From positions 1 through 28,155 of IMG/VR virus record IMGVR_UViG_2547132281_000009: DNA of 28,155 bases, one strand, 5' to 3'. This document shows, piece by piece, positions 1,312 to 28,155 of the stretch. The translations under genes and the position numbers were made by a program. The notes below the pieces were generated by a model. The model was not told the DNA's origin. It made no database searches and was given only the letters and a program-made list of their open reading frames with translations. The DNA comes from a virus. Its lineage: Duplodnaviria > Heunggongvirae > Uroviricota > Caudoviricetes. How positions within the stretch are numbered: position 1 is the first letter of the stretch; the number at the start of each line of letters is the position of its first letter.

Positions 1312-1326
1312 TGGTGTCCCCTGCAG
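1312..1326. repeat. attL core: 15-bp copy of the 3' end of tRNA-Arg (tggtgtcccctgcag)
   Basis: Exact match to 27071-27085, which is the 3' terminus (CCA end) of the intact tRNA; sequence diverges from the tRNA immediately after. Confidence 0.75.
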
Positions 1327-1385
1327 ACATCTACTTGAGGTTGCAGGGGATTGATTGGAATGGTGTTTTTTAGATGTGAAAAATA

Positions 1386-1405
1386 TTTTACCCGCTATTT
1401 TACCC
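1386..1405. promoter_or_regulatory. Tandem TTTTACCC repeats (1386-1393 and 1398-1405), candidate integrase arm-type binding sites
   Basis: Direct repeat spaced 12 bp between attL core and the xis-like gene; the same motif ttttacccg recurs at about 26949-26957, just upstream of the integrase start. Confidence 0.3.
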
Positions 1406-1600
1406 ATTGGCGCGGCTTAAGAGCTTATTTTTGAATTCACAATGGTCACGATATAACCATCTTGCTCGCCCGTGGATAACTTTGGCTTTTGGCAGGTCGC
1501 CGGACTTAATCCGGTCGTAGATGAAGGTTTTACCGAAGCCAGTATCGGCCATGATGAATTTCAAATCAACCAGTGAATCAGGCTGTAGTTCGTGTTGCAT
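1400..1600 (-). CDS. AlpA/Xis-family excisionase-like DNA-binding protein (66 aa)
   Basis: ATG at 1600 with a GGAGA Shine-Dalgarno 8 nt upstream; translation LVDLKFIMADTGFGKTFIYDRIKSGDLPKAKVIHGRARWLYRD resembles the AlpA/phage excisionase HTH family; sits next to the att core. Confidence 0.55.
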   Translation of the reverse strand: MQHELQPDSLVDLKFIMADTGFGKTFIYDRIKSGDLPKAKVIHGRARWLYRDHCEFKNKLLSRANG

Positions 1601-1644: not shown

Positions 1645-1665
1645 TAAAAAACCGCATTGATGCGG
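1645..1665 (-). terminator. Putative Rho-independent terminator (minus strand)
   Basis: 5-bp GC-rich stem ccgca/tgcgg with 4-nt loop followed on the minus strand by TTTTTT. Confidence 0.35.
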
Positions 1666-1722
1666 CGATGGTAGGTCTTGATATCTTGAGAAATGAACAG
1701 GCCTCATCGAGTGTGAGGCGGG

Positions 1723-7803: not shown

Positions 7804-8676
7804 TTATTTAATTTCTTTTTCCGGTAAATACATTGTCATTTGAACAGGTTTCTTTCCATAGTGTTGAGCAACTCGACTTCTTAGCTCATGCATGGTGTCG
7901 CATGTTTTTGCGACCCCAATAACCTCCCAGCACCTTGATACAAGCTGCCTTACACCTAGGTTCTCGGTTAACTGTCTATGCCAGTGAACTCCTGCCGCAG
8001 GCTTGTTTTCTTTAAGATATTTAGCCACATCTTCGTCAAGAGTGTCATAAATTAACTCTATAACTAATTTCCCCCACCATTTGGGCCTTGATTGCAATGG
8101 GGTACTCCATCCTGTCAATCTACCAAATTCTTCCCATAACTCATCAGGAAATGTTTTTTCCCATGCTCTTAGTTCCTCAGCGATGAACGCCCTGAGTTTT
8201 ACTTGGAGAGCATCCTCTGCGCGCTCATACTGATACCCAGTAGCCTCATCAATTAGAGCATCTAACCCAGTCCTGGTTAAACCTGCTGTTAATACAGCAC
8301 ATTTAATTGCTATTTCTCGCTGTCTATCTGTCAATGGCGCGCCTTTGTATAGCGCCTGTACATAGCCGCGACAAATCAATTCAAATTGCTCAGTCTTAAG
8401 TCCTTGGCTCTTAAATTGGGTTCCTGGTATGGAAAACTCTATGAGTTCGGCCAGGACTAAGTCTTTGTCTATAAAGCCATTAAGTGAGCTAACGCCAATA
8501 AATTTAGCCAGGTCTCCTGACTCCGCATTGGCAATTGCTTTTACAGTTGCTCGCAAAGCTATAACACGATGTCCAGTGTCAAGCACATAGCAATCAATAC
8601 TTTCACCACCTAAGTCGATCTTCCCCTTCCATTTTGCGAATGGGGATGGTAATTGCTGTAAATCATCATGTTCCAT
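7804..8676 (-). CDS. Unknown-family protein (~290 aa) in the rexAB slot downstream of cI; candidate exclusion/defence gene
   Basis: Long ORF co-oriented with cI; start most likely the ATG at 8676 (AAGGG upstream, 32 nt after cI stop); the ORF-track start at 8772 would overlap the cI coding sequence by 65 bp; no transmembrane segment; no similarity to RexA/RexB. Confidence 0.6.
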   Translation of the reverse strand: MEHDDLQQLPSPFAKWKGKIDLGGESIDCYVLDTGHRVIALRATVKAIANAESGDLAKFIGVSSLNGFIDKDLVLAELIEFSIPGTQFKSQGLKTEQFELICRGYVQALYKGAPLTDRQREIAIKCAVLTAGLTRTGLDALIDEATGYQYERAEDALQVKLRAFIAEELRAWEKTFPDELWEEFGRLTGWSTPLQSRPKWWGKLVIELIYDTLDEDVAKYLKENKPAAGVHWHRQLTENLGVRQLVSRCWEVIGVAKTCDTMHELRSRVAQHYGKKPVQMTMYLPEKEIK

Positions 8677-8707
8677 TAATTGAATTACCCTTTTTTGCTG
8701 CGTTGAA

Positions 8708-9424
<717 letters not shown>

Positions 9425-9761: not shown

Positions 9762-9840
9762 ATCAAATTAAACCACACCTATGGTGTATGCATTTATTTG
9801 CATACATTCAATCAATTGTTATCTAAGGAAATACTTACAT

Positions 9841-10134
9841 ATGGTTCGTGCAAACAAACGCAACGAGGCTCTACGAATCGAGAGTGCGTTGCTTAACAAA
9901 ATCGCAATGCTTGGAACTGAGAAGACAGCGGAAGCTGTGGGAGTTGATAAGTCGCAGATCAGCAGGTGGAAGAGGGACTGGATTCCAAAGTTCTCAATGC
10001 TGCTTGCTGTTCTTGAATGGGGTGTCGTTGACGACGACATGGCTCGATTGGCACGACAAGTTGCAGCGATTCTCACCAATAAAAAACGCCCGGCGGCAAC
10101 CGAGCGTTCTGAACAAATCCAGATGGAATTCTGA
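9841..10134 (+). CDS. cII: CII transcriptional activator (lambda CII-like, 97 aa)
   Basis: [73 protein letters not shown]... matches lambda CII; the ORF-track N-terminal extension from 9781 is upstream read-through. Confidence 0.95.
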
Positions 10135-10166
10135 GGTCATTACTGGATCAATCCACAGGAGTCATT

Positions 10167-10313
10167 ATGACAAAACAACTCAGTCCTTACCAGGACAAAA
10201 TTCACAAACACATACTACGTGATCGCTTCCTGTCCAGCTTCAAGCAGCCTGGTCGATTCCGGGCTGAGTTGGAAAAAGTGAAGCTGATGCAGAAGGAGAA
10301 AGGTCATGAGTAA
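10167..10313 (+). pseudogene. Truncated 48-codon ORF at the position of the replication-initiator (O-like) gene; probable remnant at a deletion junction
   Basis: Starts with the lambda O-type initiation context aggagtcattATGACAAA right after cII, then stops after 48 codons; gp10 follows 113 bp later. Confidence 0.3.
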
Positions 10314-10426
10314 CATATCTAATCTATCCAAACCGTATGCCTGTTGGTAGCGGTAACCAGTTGGCGAAGTGGAACGGTTGGAATTACTTCCACCGGAAGG
10401 AACCTTGCGATAACGGGAGCGAATAA

Positions 10427-11845
10427 ATGCCGATTCAGCAACTTCCGCTTATGAAAGGTGTCGGCAAAGACTTTCGAAACGCCGACTATATCGACTATCT
10501 GCCAGTGAATATGTTGGCTACACCCAAAGAAATCCTGAACAGCAGCGGATATCTTCGCTCATTCCCGGGCATTGCCAAACGTTCTGATGTGAACGGAGTA
10601 TCGCGAGGCGTCGAGTACAACATGGCGCAGAATGCTGTTTATCGCGTGTGTGGTGGCAAGCTGTACAAAGGAGAAAGTGAAGTCGGTGACGTCGCCGGAA
10701 GTGGTCGTGTATCAATGGCGCATGGTCGGACATCACAGGCGGTAGGTGTTAATGGTCAACTGGTCGAGTATCGCTATGATGGAACGGTTAAAACCGTCTC
10801 AAACTGGCCTACAGACAGCGGATTCACGCAGTATGAGTTAGGTTCTGTTCGTGACATTACGCGCTTACGCGGGCGTTATGCGTGGTCAAAAGACGGCACT
10901 GATTCATGGTTTATCACTGACCTTGAAGACGAATCGCATCCTGACAGATACAGTGCACAATATCGTGCCGAGTCTCAGCCTGACGGTATTATCGGCATCG
11001 GAACATGGCGAGACTTCATCGTCTGCTTTGGTTCATCGACGATTGAATATTTCTCCCTGACTGGTGCAACCACAGTTGGTGCTGCTTTGTATGTCGCACA
11101 GCCATCGCTGATGGTGCAAAAAGGCATCGCCGGGACTTACTGCAAAACGCCGTTTGCTGATTCCTATGCGTTTATCAGCAATCCGGCAACGGGTGCGCCG
11201 TCTGTATACATTATCGGCTCCGGTCAGGTGTCACCAATCGCCAGCGCGAGCATTGAGAAAATTCTCCGCTCCTACACTGCTGATGAACTGGCTGATGGTG
11301 TGATGGAGTCTCTGCGATTTGATGCGCATGAGCTGCTGATTATCCACCTTCCGCGCCATGTTCTCGTGTACGACGCATCTTCAAGCGCCAATGGTCCGCA
11401 ATGGTGTGTGTTGAAAACTGGCTTGTATGACGATGTGTACCGCGCTATCGACTTCATTTACGAAGGCAATCAGATAACGTGCGGCGATAAGCTGGAATCG
11501 GTTACCGGCAAATTGCAGTTCGATATCAGCAGCCAGTACGACAAGCAACAGGAACACCTGCTGTTTACTCCACTGTTCAAAGCGGATAACGCCAGAGTTT
11601 TCGACCTTGAGGTTGAATCGTCAACTGGCGTTGCGCAGTATGCTGACCGCCTTTTTCTCTCTGCAACCACTGACGGCATCAATTACGGGCGTGAGCAGAT
11701 GATTGAGCAGAATGAACCGTTCGTTTACGACAAACGCGTTTTGTGGAAGCGAGTAGGGCGCATCAGGAAAAATGTCGGCTTCAAATTGCGCGTTATCACG
11801 AAGTCACCTGTCACTCTGTCTGGCTGCCAGATAAGGATTGAGTAA
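10427..11845 (+). CDS. P22 gp10-like tail accessory (head-completion/tail hub) protein, 472 aa
   Basis: [48 protein letters not shown]... matches P22 gp10 over its length and size (from memory). Confidence 0.85.
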
Positions 11846-17831: not shown

Positions 17832-18380
17832 TTAGTGTAATCTCTGATCGTCTGAATCGTGTAAGAACTCCATGAGACTTTGAACCGGAATTGGTTCTAT
17901 TGATGATAATGTGAACACAGGAATATTGAGACTTTTGCAACGCTCAAACACTCCCTTATCATGAGTCCATACCTCGTCAGCATTAATTGCTCTTGCAATT
18001 GCTATTATTTGTCTGTCAAACTTAATTTTGTTTGCTGTACCTTCTGTGCTAATTTTCCTTAATTCTTTTAATGTTGGTATCGATGCGCATTCAATAGCAG
18101 CCAACTCATCAAATGATACAGTTTCGAAGCACGATAACGATTTGATAACATTCAGTTTTTCTTGTTGGTAATCTTTATGGATTCCAACTAAAAACTCCGC
18201 CAATACAGGAGTTGGAACGATGATTGTCCCGTTCTTGTTATCTATTCGATCAACAAGAGCTTCTGCTCTTCTTTTGGCATCTGGAATCTCAGAACCAAGT
18301 ATAGGGTCAGATAATCTATAATCGTGTTCTATATCTGATAGTAGGTATACCAGAATATTGGTATCTAAAATTACTCGCAA
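17832..18380 (-). CDS. PIN-domain nuclease-like protein (182 aa)
   Basis: N-terminal MRVILDTNILVYLL with the conserved Asp in the first strand, further acidic residues and a C-terminal WTHD motif, consistent with a PIN fold; TTG start with AGGAAG Shine-Dalgarno, overlapping the upstream stop by 10 nt. Confidence 0.7.
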   Translation of the reverse strand: MRVILDTNILVYLLSDIEHDYRLSDPILGSEIPDAKRRAEALVDRIDNKNGTIIVPTPVLAEFLVGIHKDYQQEKLNVIKSLSCFETVSFDELAAIECASIPTLKELRKISTEGTANKIKFDRQIIAIARAINADEVWTHDKGVFERCKSLNIPVFTLSSIEPIPVQSLMEFLHDSDDQRLH

Positions 18381-19090
18381 TTTATCTTCCTCAGAGTCCT
18401 AAGGATTGAATCAACATCGCGTTCCTCGGACCACTGATCTCCAGGAACTTGCTTGATAGCATTAATAGCATCCTTGAGTGATGATTTTTTGAGCAATACA
18501 AATGAAGTTATTTTTAGTTTCTTTAGCTCCCATTTGTTGTTCTTTTTTTCCCAGCACCCATCTCCTTTAACCCTAATATATTTGAATAGATGGGACCCAA
18601 GAGCTGCCGCCAAATCAGGGGTTGCCTCGCACTTGAATGTTTCACCGTTGGCTCCCTCAATACGCACAGGTATTGAGTTGTCTTTTCCGCCAACACTGTA
18701 TAGCCTTCCTTGAACTTCTGACGTTTTTGTTATGAGTAAAGGGATTGGCTCCTTTTTTACTCGCGGGAATGCGATAATGGTTGAGTGGTTTCGTCCGAGT
18801 AGTTTCGCTGAAAAACCATCATGCTCCAGTAAATTAACAATTTTTTGATACGCGGGTGATTTCTCTTTGGCTGAGAGAGAGGCCCTTGCTATGACAGCGT
18901 TATAACAAATATCATTATCGACCCATGCATTTAAGTCAGCCGATCCTTCACTTACACAGTCGAAGTGAACAGAATCTGCAGAACCGTATAGATCTACGAG
19001 AGCAGACATATACTTGACCAACTTAGCCATTGACAGCTGGCCAGGGGTGGTTCCGTCAAGTTTTAATGTGAGTCCATTGCTTTTTTTCAT
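18371..19090 (-). CDS. Unknown-family protein (239 aa), upstream partner of the PIN-domain gene
   Basis: ATG at 19090; stop overlaps the PIN start (operon); AT-rich; no recognisable motif, no P-loop, no transmembrane segment. Confidence 0.65.
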   Translation of the reverse strand: MKKSNGLTLKLDGTTPGQLSMAKLVKYMSALVDLYGSADSVHFDCVSEGSADLNAWVDNDICYNAVIARASLSAKEKSPAYQKIVNLLEHDGFSAKLLGRNHSTIIAFPRVKKEPIPLLITKTSEVQGRLYSVGGKDNSIPVRIEGANGETFKCEATPDLAAALGSHLFKYIRVKGDGCWEKKNNKWELKKLKITSFVLLKKSSLKDAINAIKQVPGDQWSEERDVDSILRTLRKINCE

Positions 19091-20485: not shown

Positions 20486-20556
20486 GTAAGCGTACAGCCT
20501 GAACCGTCTGGTCAGAATCTGACAAATTAGACAAAGTGGTGTCCACCAAATAAGTA

Positions 20557-20958
20557 GTGGGAACCAAAGTGTCAGATATGCAGAAAAATGTGACTCCCGG
20601 CAGGCGAAAAGGCTGCCCTAATTATCCTCCCGAATTTAAACAGCAGCTCGTTGCTGCCTCCTGTGAACCCGGGATATCCATCTCAAAACTTGCTCTTGAA
20701 AATGGCATTAACGCCAATCTGTTGTTCAAATGGCGACAACAATGGCGCGAGGGAAAGCTGCTATTACCTTCTTCAGAGAGCCCCCAGCTACTTCCTGTGA
20801 CTCTCGATGCAGCTGCCGAACAGCCAGAATCGCTCGCAGAGGACCCGGAAACCCTCAGTATCAGCTGTGAGGTAACGTTCCGGCACGGGACGCTCCGCTT
20901 CAATGGCAATGTCAGCGAAAAGCTCCTGACTCTGCTGATACAGGAACTGAAGCGATGA
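20557..20958 (+). CDS. IS66-family accessory protein TnpA (orf1)
   Basis: First ORF of the IS; typical IS66 orfA sequence. Confidence 0.8.
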   Translation: MGTKVSDMQKNVTPGRRKGCPNYPPEFKQQLVAASCEPGISISKLALENGINANLLFKWRQQWREGKLLLPSSESPQLLPVTLDAAAEQPESLAEDPETLSISCEVTFRHGTLRFNGNVSEKLLTLLIQELKR

Positions 20959-21302
20959 TCCCGTTACCTTCCGGGACCAAAATTTGGCTGGTTGCCGGTA
21001 TCACCGATATGAGAAATGGCTTCAACGGCCTGGCTGCGAAAGTACAAACGGCGCTGAAAGACGATCCCATGTCCGGCCATGTTTTCATTTTCCGGGGCCG
21101 CAGCGGCAGTCAGGTTAAACTGCTGTGGTCCACCGGTGACGGACTGTGCCTCCTGACCAAACGGCTGGAGCGTGGGCGCTTCGCCTGGCCGTCAGCCCGT
21201 GATGGCAAAGTGTTCCTTACGCAGGCGCAGCTGGCGATGCTGCTGGAAGGTATCGACTGGCGACAGCCCAAGCGGTTGCTGACCTCCCTGACCATGCTGT
21301 AA
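20955..21302 (+). CDS. IS66-family accessory protein TnpB (orf2)
   Basis: Overlaps the orf1 stop (ATGA); [31 protein letters not shown] is the conserved IS66 orf2 N-terminus. Confidence 0.85.
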
Positions 21303-21351
21303 ATCTCTTTATCCTGGTTGTCACAGAATAAGCCCGGTAAAATACGGGCTT

Positions 21352-22890
21352 ATGAACGACATCTCTTCTGACGACATCTTCCTGCTGAAACAGCGCCTGG
21401 CCGAACAGGAAGCGCTGATCCACGCCCTGCAGGAAAAGCTGAGCAACCGGGAGCGCGAAATAGACCATCTGCAGGCGCAGCTGGATAAACTCCGCCGGAT
21501 GAACTTCGGCAGTCGTTCCGAAAAAGTCTCCCGCCGTATCGCACAAATGGAAGCCGATCTGAACCGGCTTCAGAAAGAGAGCGATACGCTGACTGGTAGG
21601 GTGTATGACCCGGCTGTACAGCGTCCGTTGCGTCAGACCCGCACCCGTAAGCCGTTCCCTGAATCACTACCCCGTGACGAAAAGCGACTGTTGCCTGCGG
21701 CGCCGTGCTGCCCGAACTGCGGCGGTTCACTGAGCTATCTGGGCGAGGATACCGCCGAACAGCTGGAGTTGATGCGTAGTGCCTTCCGGGTTATCCGGAC
21801 GGTACGGGAAAAACATGCCTGTACTCAGTGCGATGCCATCGTGCAGGCACCTGCACCTTCGCGGCCCATCGAGCGGGGTATCGCCGGACCGGGGCTGCTG
21901 GCCCGCGTGCTGACCTCGAAGTATGCAGAGCACACCCCGCTGTATCGCCAGTCAGAAATATACGGCCGGCAAGGTGTGGAGCTGAGCCGTTCACTGCTGT
22001 CGGGCTGGGTGGATGCATGCTGCCGGCTGCTGTCTCCGCTGGAAGAGGCGCTTCATGGCTATGTCATGACTGACGGCAAACTCCATGCCGATGATACCCC
22101 GGTCCAGGTACTGCTGCCGGGTAATAAGAAGACGAAGACCGGGCGGTTGTGGGCGTATGTTCGTGATGACCGCAATGCCGGGTCAGCGTTGGCACCTGCA
22201 GTGTGGTTCGCTTACAGCCCGGACAGAAAAGGCATCCATCCGCAGACTCATCTTGCCTGCTTCAGCGGTGTGCTGCAAGCGGATGCGTACGCCGGGTTCA
22301 ACGAGCTGTATCGCAATGGTGGGATAACGGAAGCTGCCTGCTGGGCTCATGCCCGCCGAAAGATCCACGATGTGCACGTCCGCATCCCGTCAGCACTGAC
22401 GGAAGAAGCCCTGGAGCAGATCGGTCAGTTGTACGCCATAGAGGCGGATATAAGGGGAATGCCGGCAGAGCAGCGGCTTGCTGAACGTCAGCGAAAAACG
22501 AAACCGCTGTTGAAATCCCTGGAAAGCTGGTTGCGTGAAAAGATGAAAACCCTGTCGCGACACTCAGAACTGGCGAAAGCGTTCGCATACGCCCTGAACC
22601 AGTGGCCGGCGCTGACGTACTATGCAGATGATGGCTGGGCTGAGGCGGACAATAACATCGCTGAAAATGCGTTGCGGATGGTCAGTCTGGGCCGCAAAAA
22701 CTACCTGTTCTTCGGTTCGGATCATGGAGGAGAGCGGGGAGCGCTGCTGTACAGCCTGATCGGGACGTGCAAACTGAACGGAGTGGAGCCAGAAAGCTAC
22801 CTCCGCTATGTCCTTGACGTCATAGCCGACTGGCCGATAAACCGGGTCGGCGAACTGCTCCCCTGGCGCGTAGCACTGCCGACTGAATAA
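21352..22890 (+). CDS. IS66-family transposase TnpC (orf3), 512 aa
   Basis: N-terminal leucine-zipper region, CxxC...CxxC zinc motif and C-terminal DDE-type core characteristic of IS66 transposases. Confidence 0.9.
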
Positions 22891-22927
22891 CACATCCCCG
22901 TCAATACGGTTCTTGCTGCACGCTTAC

Positions 22928-23558
22928 CGACAAGGTAATCCAGTATCAGGAAGAGTGTGACGATGTGCTCTACGAGTACTGGACTAAAGGTCATGTAGTT
23001 AACCCACGCAAAGCTAAAAAAGCGTTGCCGGGTAAAATCACCACTGAACAGCAGGAAGCCATTAAACAACTCGTCATGAGTCGCGGTCAGTCTCTACCAA
23101 AAGAAAAACAGGCTAAGGCGATGATCACCATGTGGTCGTCACTGAAATCTCATTTTGGGTGTTCATACAAAGAAATCAGTGAGGAGCAGTTTACCGAAGC
23201 ACTGTCACTTGCTGCTCGCGTTCCGCTCGAAGGTGAGTTCATCGGCAAACAAGAGAAGAAAACCAACGAGCTTTCTGCAAAAGAAGCAAACAGCCTTGTA
23301 TGGTTATGGGATTATGCCAACCGCTCACAGGCATTATTCCGCGAACTGTATCCGGCGCTAAAACAAATTCAATCGAACTATTCCGGCAGATGTCATGACT
23401 GCGGTTATGAGTTCTCCCGTATTATCGATATGGCGAGAGATGTTTTAATCAACCACACACGAGATGTTGATATCAATGAGCCAGACGGACCAACGAATCT
23501 TTCCGCATGGATGAGACTTAAGAATAAAGAATTACCTCCTTCAGTACATAACTACTGA
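22928..23558 (+). pseudogene. ant: Antirepressor Ant, C-terminal part, downstream of the IS insertion
   Basis: In frame with the N-terminal part once the IS and one target-duplication copy are removed (2450 bp); combined length ~308 aa, similar to P22 Ant. Confidence 0.7.
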
Positions 23559-25753: not shown

Positions 25754-26911
25754 TCACTCCACCTTTTCATCAAGCCAGTCCGCCCACCACTGCATCATTT
25801 CTCTGCGCTTATCGAGATACTGAGCATGGTTGTAAATACCGCGCACAGATCCGCCGTTGGCATGTGCCAGCTGCACTTCAATAGCGTCAGCAGGCCATTC
25901 GTGCTCGTTCATAATCGTGCTGAATTCATGCCTGAATCCGTGACCGCTTTCCAGACCTTCATAGCCGATTTGTTTGATCACAAGCAATACCGCGTTCTCG
26001 CAGATTGGCTTCTTCTTATCGTTGCGCCCGGCAAAAACAAACTCTGATACTGGTTTGGTGATTGAGCTTAGCGTAGTGAGAAGTTCAACCACCTGGTCTG
26101 ACATAGGAACAACATGAATCTTGCGGCCCTTCATCACACTGGCGTCGATGGTGATAATCCTGTTTTCAAAATCGACGTTCTTCCATTGCATGGAACGAAG
26201 CTCTTTCGTTCTTAGGGCTGTGTAGCGTAAAACTTTGGTCGCAATGAGCGATACGATGCTTCCTGAAAATGTTGCCAGTGCTTTGTTGAATGCAGGGATC
26301 TGGTCTGCTGGAAGAAACGGGAAGTTCTTCTTGCGGTATCCTTTCATGGCGTCTGCAAGGTCAGGTGCCGGGTTATATTTAGCCCTTCCGGTGACAATAG
26401 CGTAACGGAAAACCTCGCCGCATCTTCTGCGGGCTTTGTTGGCTCGCTCCATTGCACCGCGATCTTCAAATCTGCGGATTACTTCCAACAGTTGCATCGG
26501 CTCAATATCCTGAATTTCAAGGCTGCCGATGATGGGTAAAATGTCGTCATCAAACATTTTGGCAAGTTCAGTTGCATAGCCTACTGACCAGACTTGCTTC
26601 TTGTGCTCGTACCATTCCTTGTAAATCGCACTAAATGAATTGTTGTTAGACGAAGCCTTTTTCGCTTTTACCGGATCGATGCCAACCGAGATGTCTTTCC
26701 TCGCGGTCCATGCTTTATCTCTTGCCTCCTGCAAAGTCATAAGCGGATATTTTCCTACGGTCAGGATTTTCTCCTTACCGTCAATCTTGTAGCGAAGCTG
26801 CCATACCTTTTTCCCGGATACAGGGACATAAAGGTACAGGCCATTACCATCGAGAAGGCGGTATGGTTTTTCTTTCGGCTTTGCTGCTTCAATCTGCTTA
26901 ACGGTGAGCAT
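25754..26911 (-). CDS. Tyrosine integrase, P4 family (IntS-like)
   Basis: N-terminus MLTVKQIEAAKPKEKPYRLLDGNGLYLYV and C-terminal catalytic region (HGFRHEF...LAHANGGSVRGIYNHAQY) match CPS-53 IntS-type integrases; an upstream in-frame ATG at 26947 is an alternative start. Confidence 0.95.
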   Translation of the reverse strand: MLTVKQIEAAKPKEKPYRLLDGNGLYLYVPVSGKKVWQLRYKIDGKEKILTVGKYPLMTLQEARDKAWTARKDISVGIDPVKAKKASSNNNSFSAIYKEWYEHKKQVWSVGYATELAKMFDDDILPIIGSLEIQDIEPMQLLEVIRRFEDRGAMERANKARRRCGEVFRYAIVTGRAKYNPAPDLADAMKGYRKKNFPFLPADQIPAFNKALATFSGSIVSLIATKVLRYTALRTKELRSMQWKNVDFENRIITIDASVMKGRKIHVVPMSDQVVELLTTLSSITKPVSEFVFAGRNDKKKPICENAVLLVIKQIGYEGLESGHGFRHEFSTIMNEHEWPADAIEVQLAHANGGSVRGIYNHAQYLDKRREMMQWWADWLDEKVE

Positions 26912-27070
26912 GGGTAAAAATCCGGTGGGTAAAATTATTTTATCCACTTTTTACCCGTCATGGAGTGCGGCTGTCAACGATCTGACGCGAACCATGACGA
27001 ACCGTGAATATACGGAAGGATTGATATTCAGGGGATTTTGCGGACTGGTACGGATGGGAGCGAACTGATA

Positions 27071-27147
27071 AATGGTGTCCCCTGCAGGAATCGAACCTGC
27101 AATTAGCCCTTAGGAGGGGCTCGTTATATCCATTTAACTAAGAGGAC
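27071..27147 (-). tRNA. argW: tRNA-Arg (anticodon CCT), argW; its 3' end forms the attR core
   Basis: Minus-strand sequence GTCCTCT...CTCCTAA...GGTTCGATTCCTGCAGGGGACACCA with acceptor-stem pairing, CCT anticodon and encoded CCA; ends may be off by 1-2 nt. Confidence 0.9.
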
Positions 27148-27222
27148 AATGCGGCATGAGTATACCCGCTAATGGAGTGCGGGGTAAGTACGCTGCCGCT
27201 CGATTGCTTAAACCCTCGCCAT

Positions 27223-28155
27223 TTATGCCGGGTTTTTATCATTTTTCTTAATGTTTTCCGCACGTTCTGCTTTTTGGCGTGCTTCTGCTTTACGCTTGTT
27301 GCTCATGTCGTTACGAATCTGTGCATGACTCATTAACGCGAAGATAAAGGTGCCGCCGCAGATGTTCCCCGCTAAAGTAGGTAGTGCGAAGGGCCAGATG
27401 AAATCGCTCCAGTGCAGCGTACCGTTAAACACCAGATAGAGGATTTCAACAGAACCGACCACGATATGGGTGGTGTCACCCAGGGCAATAAGCCAGGTCA
27501 TCAATATAATCACCACAATCTTTGCCGCACCTGCTGCAGGAAACATCCATACCATAGTGGCGATCAGCCAGCCGGAAATGATCGCGTTGGCAAACATCTC
27601 GCTGGGGGTGTTCTTCATCACATCCATGCCGATTTTGACAAATGCATCGCGAGTTTCTTCATTGAAGATAGGCATATATTCAAATGCCCATGCAGCAATA
27701 CCTGTCCCGAGAATATTACCCAGCAGCACGACGCCCCATAATCGCATAAGTAAGCCGACGTTGCTCATTGTCGGTTTTTGCATGACGGGTAGTACCGCAG
27801 TCACGGTGTTTTCGGTAAATAATTGCTGGCGGGCCATAATGACGATAATAAAACCAAAGGTATAACCGAGATTCTCCAGTAAGAAGCTGCCCGGCACACC
27901 TTCCAGTTCGACATGAAATATCCCTTTTGCCAGTAACGAAGCGCCCATCGACAGACCCGCCGCAATGGCTGACCACAGTAGCGCCATTGCGTCGCGTTCC
28001 AGCTCTTTTTCACCATCCTGGCGGATATGCTCATGAATTGCCATCGCCCGGGAGGGGAGTCGGTCTTCATCTATTTCTATTTTTTTGCCGCGCTCTTTTT
28101 CTTCGCTCTCAACTTCAATTTCGTCGCTGTGTTGATCAATTTTGTCGTTGTCCAT
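27223..28155 (-). CDS. yfdC: Inner-membrane formate/nitrite-transporter-family protein YfdC (310 aa)
   Basis: Multi-TM protein matching YfdC as I recall it; yfdC is the chromosomal neighbour of argW in E. coli; start codon is at the window edge. Confidence 0.85.
   Translation of the reverse strand: MDNDKIDQHSDEIEVESEEKERGKKIEIDEDRLPSRAMAIHEHIRQDGEKELERDAMALLWSAIAAGLSMGASLLAKGIFHVELEGVPGSFLLENLGYTFGFIIVIMARQQLFTENTVTAVLPVMQKPTMSNVGLLMRLWGVVLLGNILGTGIAAWAFEYMPIFNEETRDAFVKIGMDVMKNTPSEMFANAIISGWLIATMVWMFPAAGAAKIVVIILMTWLIALGDTTHIVVGSVEILYLVFNGTLHWSDFIWPFALPTLAGNICGGTFIFALMSHAQIRNDMSNKRKAEARQKAERAENIKKNDKNPA

Follow-up and report, generated by a model that had tools for sequence, protein, structure and literature searches.

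The stretch of DNA analysed here (the window, 28,155 nucleotides) almost certainly carries a 25.76-kb defective P22-like prophage, which is inserted in the tRNA gene argW at its 3' end and uses the recombination module of KplE1 (CPS-53), HK620 and Sf6. The two TGGTGTCCCCTGCAG repeats are the real ends of this defective P22-like prophage in argW. The IntS/TorI attachment system at argW has already been named and characterised in KplE1/CPS-53, HK620 and Sf6, and the element in the window shows every property of that module that can be tested on sequence.

Ends of the prophage and the reconstructed attP

The elements that define the two ends are the following (coordinates are those of the window).

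27073-27147, minus strand: argW, tRNA-Arg(CCT), identified by ARAGORN and the same as K-12 argW by eye
27073-27087, no strand assigned: int-side core (attL in K-12 naming), the 3' end of intact argW, identified as an exact duplicate and by ARAGORN
1312-1326, no strand assigned: torI-side core (attR in K-12 naming), the displaced 3'-terminal 15 nt of argW and the equivalent of the K-12 pseudogene pawZ, identified by the duplication, the empty-site join and the K-12 annotation
25754-26911, minus strand: intS, tyrosine integrase (385 aa) that has an arm-DNA-binding domain at its N terminus, identified by 383/385 identity to K-12 IntS and by Pfam
1400-1600, minus strand: torI, recombination directionality factor (RDF, excisionase) of 66 aa, identified by 66/66 identity to K-12 TorI, a match to PDB 1z4h and RefSeq
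1651-1666, minus strand: terminator-like hairpin at the inner edge of the conserved recombination module, identified by conservation across torI-upstream sequences

A sequence-only reading of this DNA had placed the 15-mer TGGTGTCCCCTGCAG at both prophage ends. The first copy lies where it was placed, at 1312-1326, and the second, given as 27071-27085, actually occupies 27073-27087, 2 nt further on. These are the only two exact copies in the window, where 0.07 would be expected; none of 100 shuffled sequences reached two, and no further copy was found when up to two mismatches were allowed. The copies are 25,761 bp apart from start to start, in agreement with the proposed length of about 25.8 kb. 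The 15-mer was also rightly taken for a tRNA 3' terminus: it forms the last 15 nt, CCA included, of tRNA-Arg(CCT), the single tRNA that ARAGORN found in the window. The core of KplE1 is 16 nt, CTGCAGGGGACACCAT (PMC2951348), and 15 of the 16 published nucleotides of the argW 3'-end core, CTGCAGGGGACACCA(T), are duplicated here. The perfect duplication is 15 nt rather than the published 16 because the csc-side flank has a C where K-12 has an A. The length of the perfect duplication is set by the bacterial flank and is 15 nt here, 16 nt in K-12 and 17 nt in strain MP1.

The predicted empty site (1012-1326 joined to 27088-27400) was searched in 5426 complete E. coli genomes. Many E. coli chromosomes contain it in one unbroken piece at 100% identity, and query coverage reaches 80% or more in 1415 of the 5426 genomes; in one example, NZ_CP033401, the gene order is cscA-cscK-cscB-argW-yfdC. 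Prophage-free E. coli join exactly at the 15-mer and show no different junction, which bears out the proposed boundaries against the uninterrupted cscB-argW junction.

The integrase is identical to IntS of the K-12 cryptic prophage CPS-53/KplE1 at 383 of 385 residues, and its gene is 96-97% identical at the DNA level to the int genes of HK620, Sf6 and CUS-3. Pfam assigns it the domains Arm-DNA-bind_3 (E = 2e-25), Phage_int_M and Phage_integrase. Its start faces the tRNA, as had been read, with the ATG at 26911-26909 on the minus strand, toward argW. The gene described earlier as xis-like is torI, whose product is identical to K-12 TorI at all 66 residues and matches PDB 1z4h; it sits at the opposite prophage end, where it adjoins the far core. 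RefSeq names torI in genomes sharing the cscB-torI junction, and every protein retrieved from IMG/VR with TorI as the query was 100% identical. Across 73 unique sequences upstream of torI, conservation stays at 95% or higher between the T-run of the hairpin and the torI ATG and collapses upstream of the T-run, so that the hairpin at 1651-1666 delimits the shared recombination module on its inner side.

The predicted attP was built from 26880-27087 joined to 1327-1660 and compared with HK620 and Sf6 over 541 bp. It aligns without gaps to the contiguous int-attP-hkaC region of the free phage HK620 (96.9% identity), to the int-attP-gene 18 region of the free phage Sf6 (97.2%) and to the joined K-12 ends (96.1%). 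In the records of both phages the attP core is annotated at this same point, between int and the TorI homologue. This gapless match to two native attP regions confirms the proposal that in the circular form attP lies between the xis-like gene and int. Phage Kapi1 uses the same att; its attP was shown experimentally to lie between int and xis, and a 17-bp duplication is found in its host (PMC8787464). An argW query against phage records, aimed at attP sites with longer tRNA identity, returned mostly prophage records with host DNA and unrelated phage-encoded tRNA genes.

Two further repeats lie on the torI side.

1620-1635, no strand assigned: orphan 16-mer GGAATCGAACCTGCAA, which matches the argW T-arm (27087-27102) exactly and is part of the phage, identified by sequence match
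1317-1325 and 1342-1350, no strand assigned: inverted repeat TCCCCTGCA / TGCAGGGGA, which runs across the edge of the core into the beginning of the P arm, identified from sequence

In argW, the T-arm stretch matched by the 16-mer GGAATCGAACCTGCAA follows straight on from the core; the 16-mer keeps that order and orientation, but torI and the P arm separate it from the core by 293 bp. Its exact match to the T-arm beyond the core could be read as placing the left boundary of the prophage at 1620-1635, with 1312-1619 as a separate small element or a tandem remnant. We give this reading next to no credence, since free HK620 and Sf6 carry 1327-1635 contiguous with attP, empty-site genomes join exactly at the 15-mer and the attR substrate used in vitro ends at 1423. 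The empty-site and free-phage comparisons rule out 1620-1635 as an alternative boundary, as a tandem element and as a second att site. The boundary at the 15-mer is thus retained, and the 16-mer is a phage sequence. Free HK620 and Sf6 carry it, as do K-12 and 79 of 84 torI loci, and more distant attP sequences lack it. The minimal attR substrate does not include it, and in HK620 it falls within a promoter annotated "phage integration". One rather unlikely explanation is that it is a relic of an older attP with ~30 contiguous argW nucleotides, split by a 293-bp cassette of torI and the present P arm. If so, the RDF and one arm of this module would have been acquired together, as a single unit, at the point of crossover. 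No intermediate form was found among 146 loci. Alternatively, the 16-mer may simply be part of the torI leader.

The inverted repeat at 1317-1350 is kept in HK620, Sf6, K-12, Klebsiella phage Chronis and the type-B attP loci described below, with 15-22 nt between its arms. This core-adjacent repeat, also written as CCCCTGCA / TGCAGGGG, is conserved in both of the arm-word clades. The right arm of the repeat in the window overlaps an IHF-like match at 1344-1356 (one mismatch). The scan of the att arms found no exact IHF consensus, only two one-mismatch matches.

Arm-type words and the intS promoter

The words and promoter elements on the two att arms are listed here. The K-12 coordinates of the -10 box, the transcription start site (TSS) and the TorI blocks (PMC2951348) were moved to the window by ungapped alignment.

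1386-1393 and 1398-1405, plus strand: P-arm pair, putative IntS arm-type sites, direct copies of TTTTACCC with a 12-nt period, 59 nt from the core, identified by sequence and the HK620 attP repeat
26912-26956, no strand assigned: P'-arm cluster, putative IntS arm-type sites, with GGGTAAAA at 26912-26919 and 26927-26934, TTTTATCC at 26938-26945 and TTTTACCC at 26949-26956
26972-26977, minus strand: intS -35 box, TTGACA, from sequence and the published promoter
26948-26953, minus strand: predicted intS -10 box, within the copy GGGTAAAAA and overlapping the P' TTTTACCC at 26949-26956, from transferred K-12 coordinates
26939/26940, minus strand: predicted intS TSS, from transferred K-12 coordinates
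26977-27004, minus strand: predicted TorI block I3-I4-I5 (GTTCG, GTTCG, GATCG), from transferred K-12 coordinates, with pentamers at 26978, 26988 and 26998
27040-27067, minus strand: predicted TorI block I1-I2 (GTTCG, GTCCG), from transferred K-12 coordinates, with pentamers at 27041 and 27061

The word TTTTACCC occurs eight times in the window, counting both strands, against 0.74 expected, and none of 100 shuffled sequences reached eight. The att arms hold five of the exact copies, together with one degenerate copy. The tandem pair at 1386-1405 and the copy at 26949-26956 had been reported before and are exact. Two inverted copies and a one-mismatch copy on the P' arm had been overlooked; the inverted copies are at 26912-26919, where the word abuts the int ATG, and at 26927-26934, and the one-mismatch copy TTTTATCC is at 26938-26945. 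Of the three copies beyond the att arms, one is in cscB (at 233), one at 23030 and one within int (at 26534), where the word encodes Ile-Leu-Pro; we assign no function to any of the three. The HK620 record marks the equivalent of the int-internal copy as an attP repeat.

Both arm clusters are conserved among the relatives. The P-arm pair is identical in K-12, HK620 and Sf6, the P'-arm cluster is 100% identical to all three, and all arm words are the same in the predicted attP, the K-12 join and the HK620 and Sf6 attP. The attP repeats annotated in the HK620 record coincide with the words on both arms. According to the KplE1 study, the K-12 IntS P' arm-type sites all contain TAAA, and P'1 overlaps the intS -10 box TAAAAA (PMC2951348). 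The same source places the KplE1 intS promoter over the int-side att region, together with five TorI sites (GTTCG, GATCG, GTCCG). In the window the -35 box, the -10 box and the P' words are identical to K-12 and five of five pentamers are present. The published intS promoter was missed by a generic sigma-70 scan, as its -10 box, TAAAAA, does not satisfy the rule that the scan applies.

The published excision substrates cover the same words. In vitro, a 135-bp attR substrate was sufficient for TorI-dependent excision (PMC3509656). The primer attR-IHF2 of that study equals window positions 1404-1423, so the attR substrate ends at 1423, just beyond the tandem TTTTACCC pair, and the int-side substrate corresponds to 26888-27107. 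Compared with K-12, the equivalent stretches differ at 6 positions in the 220-bp int side and at 4 in the 112-bp torI side. None of these 10 substitutions falls within an arm word or a TorI pentamer.

We then compared IntS relatives, taking one genome per species together with IMG/VR and inspecting the 75 nt upstream of the int ATG at 57 loci. A tRNA-Arg(CCT) gene lies just upstream of int in 21 of 23 genome loci scanned with ARAGORN. At 27 of the 57 loci only GGGTAAA/TTTACCC was found, in 2-4 copies (word A), and at the other 30 only GGGCAT/ATGCCC, in 3-4 copies (word B); no locus mixes the two. The layout is common to both groups, with two copies toward int followed by inverted copies, the last of which abuts the ATG. 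The split tracks the N-terminal domain of the integrase (KVWQLRYK...LTVGKYP vs KVWR[LM]RYRF...LVIGPYP), although the switch represents a single evolutionary event separating two clades and its instances are not statistically independent evidence. On the other arm, all eight native type-B attP loci carry a tandem GGGCA[TC]A with a 12-13-nt period, ~60 nt from the core, corresponding to 1386-1405 of the window. The word of the RDF-side tandem pair is that of the int-side arm in native attP sequences. Both arms thus switch word with the integrase, which is what sites recognised by its N-terminal domain should do. Across the loci (L006-L146; for example L087, L091, L107 and L122), the core and the architecture are common to both classes.

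The words at the positions of the TorI sites (equivalent to 26977-27067 in the window) vary by lineage among GTTCG, CGAAC and [AG]TTACC, independently of the arm-word class. On these sequences, this suggests that RDF specificity may be exchanged independently of the integrase.

The TTTTACCC words might instead be promoter or operator elements, or TorI or IHF sites, that merely cluster near the att cores. The P' copies do overlap the intS -10 box and the 5' leader, and one degenerate copy overlaps an IHF-like match. We consider this explanation very improbable. The TorI sites are other words (GTTCG, GATCG, GTCCG) at other positions, whereas the published P' sites (PMC2951348) resemble these copies in containing TAAA and in overlapping the -10 box. 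Two P-arm copies, moreover, lie 25 kb from any int promoter and within the minimal attR substrate, and the word switches on both arms together with the N-terminal domain of the integrase. The earlier proposal that the motif marks arm-type sites therefore agrees with the coinciding HK620 attP repeats, the published IntS P' description and the comparative word switch. Taken together, the partial published descriptions, the HK620 annotation and the comparative test support the TTTTACCC words as putative IntS arm-type sites.

The defective P22-like body

Between the cores lies a P22-like set of genes that has lost a central part and gained an insertion sequence.

1327-27072, no strand assigned: defective P22-like prophage body, identified by gene content
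20486-22927, plus strand: IS66-family insertion that interrupts a P22-type antirepressor gene, with the 8-bp target duplication CGACAAGG

The body begins with torI, ea genes, a Rad52-type recombinase, CI, Cro and cII, and continues from gp10 onward. After gp10/head closure come the tail needle, three ejection proteins, a PIN-domain gene, the IS66-split antirepressor, the tailspike and intS. No replication, nin, lysis, terminase, portal, scaffold or coat genes were found in the prophage, which is a defective derivative without the complete morphogenetic and replication set of a P22-like (Lederbergvirus-type) phage. At the deletion joint (10134-10427), the cII-like gene (9781-10134) runs straight into gp10 (10427). 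The IS66 element encodes TnpA, TnpB and a DDE transposase, has 23-nt terminal inverted repeats and has a GC content of ~0.59 vs ~0.45 around it. The same whole prophage was not found in complete RefSeq E. coli genomes, where the best match covers 49%.

Some smaller genes of the body were also recorded. A PIN-domain ORF (182 aa) and an overlapping 239-aa ORF without a family match occupy 17832-19090 on the minus strand, with a GC content of 0.38-0.40. With the ejection genes on one side and the immI-like region on the other, the pair occupies a place typical of moron or defence genes. PADLOC gave no match for the PIN-domain gene or for nine other small ORFs. A 322-aa ORF (7804-8772, minus strand) adjoins the CI-like repressor with a slight 3'-end overlap; it matches only phrog_2384 (PHROG, function unassigned) and has no PADLOC match.

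Known relatives, proposed mechanism and meaning

KplE1 (CPS-53) of K-12 resembles the window element in its core, arm words, TorI pentamers and intS promoter, in an intS that is read away from argW and in a torI at the far end. The two differ in body, which is 10.2 kb with gtr-type genes in KplE1 vs 25.8 kb and P22-like in the window. They also differ in the torI-side flank (dsdC in K-12, cscB in the window) and at 10 att-arm positions outside the site words. HK620 and Sf6, and also CUS-3 and Kapi1, share the order int, repeats, core, repeats, hkaC/gene 18, as well as the orphan 16-mer and P22-like virion genes. They are complete infectious phages of 38-40 kb, whereas the copy in the window lacks the replication-to-coat region and carries IS66.

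The attachment region had also been likened to P4-type elements. P4 targets leuX, whereas the target here is argW. The likeness holds for the integrase family and for the uncoupled int/RDF layout, but the element itself is P22-like: it contains no P4 genes and does not fit a P4-like satellite (primase-helicase, cnr, psu/sid; helper dependence). The KplE1 authors themselves compare the int/RDF layout with that of P4 (PMC2951348). In the same source, P4 Int/Vis is alike in that int and the RDF gene are not co-transcribed and in that int has its own promoter, which overlaps att and is repressed by Int and the RDF; the integrase is also of the same broad type, with an N-terminal Arm-DNA-bind_3 domain (Pfam), and the target is likewise a tRNA 3' end. 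A difference noted by these authors is that Vis may act on int mRNA, whereas TorI binds DNA (PMC2951348).

With lambda Int/Xis/attP the element shares a heterobivalent integrase, core and arm-type sites, an RDF acting on direct repeats in one arm, and IHF. The first of these is seen here as an N-terminal arm-binding domain together with a repeated non-core word on both arms. In lambda, xis and int are adjacent and co-transcribed on one side of attP, whereas in the window the two genes flank attP and lie at opposite prophage ends. Further differences from lambda are that the int-proximal arm holds the RDF sites and that att contains the int promoter.

From these comparisons, we propose the following mechanism. 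IntS would act as a heterobivalent tyrosine integrase whose catalytic domain recombines the core TGGTGTCCCCTGCAG common to attP and the argW 3' end, and the phage copy of the core would restore the tRNA on integration. Its N-terminal domain would bind the arm words TTTTACCC/GGGTAAAA, namely two direct copies by torI on the P arm and three exact copies plus one degenerate copy on the P' arm, between the intS -10 box and the ATG. Five GTTCG-type sites, located between the intS -35 box and the core, are predicted to be bound by TorI, which would so steer the reaction to excision. The arm words on both sides and the int-side TorI sites would then assemble an excisive complex with IHF, and the excised circle would have the order int, P' arm, core, P arm, torI. 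Since the intS promoter is overlapped by the P' arm, IntS and TorI would repress intS as well. What is said of protein binding, of autoregulation and of excision comes from work on near-identical DNA (PMC2951348; PMC3509656), in which excision was demonstrated in vivo and in vitro and TorI-dependent formation of attP and attB was shown for K-12 and HK620 substrates.

The prophage could, on the other hand, be a fixed remnant, with att, int and torI intact, that never excises in this host, so that the repeats are only a historical mark of insertion. The body is defective, with its replication, lysis, terminase, portal and coat genes missing and IS66 inserted, and the terminator-like hairpin would shield torI from upstream transcription. 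The same cscB-torI junction is found, furthermore, in 136 genomes at a query coverage of 80% or more, a distribution that fits vertical inheritance. Against this, KplE1 of K-12 is more degraded (10.2 kb) and yet excises in vivo when TorI is supplied (PMC2951348). IntS and TorI of the window are 99% and 100% identical to those of K-12, and every mapped site word is intact. Permanent fixation therefore appears quite unlikely, and the prophage in the window is probably still excisable when TorI is made, as is the more degraded KplE1.

The value of these results is mainly in annotation: the prophage ends are fixed to the base, the integrase and the excisionase are named, and a defective P22-like element is recognised. 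The conserved tRNA T-arm fragment in the torI leader is of possible interest for work on integrase specificity. Finally, the two argW-targeting classes, which have the same core and different arm words (GGGTAAAA or GGGCATA), represent a natural specificity swap that could guide domain-swap experiments.
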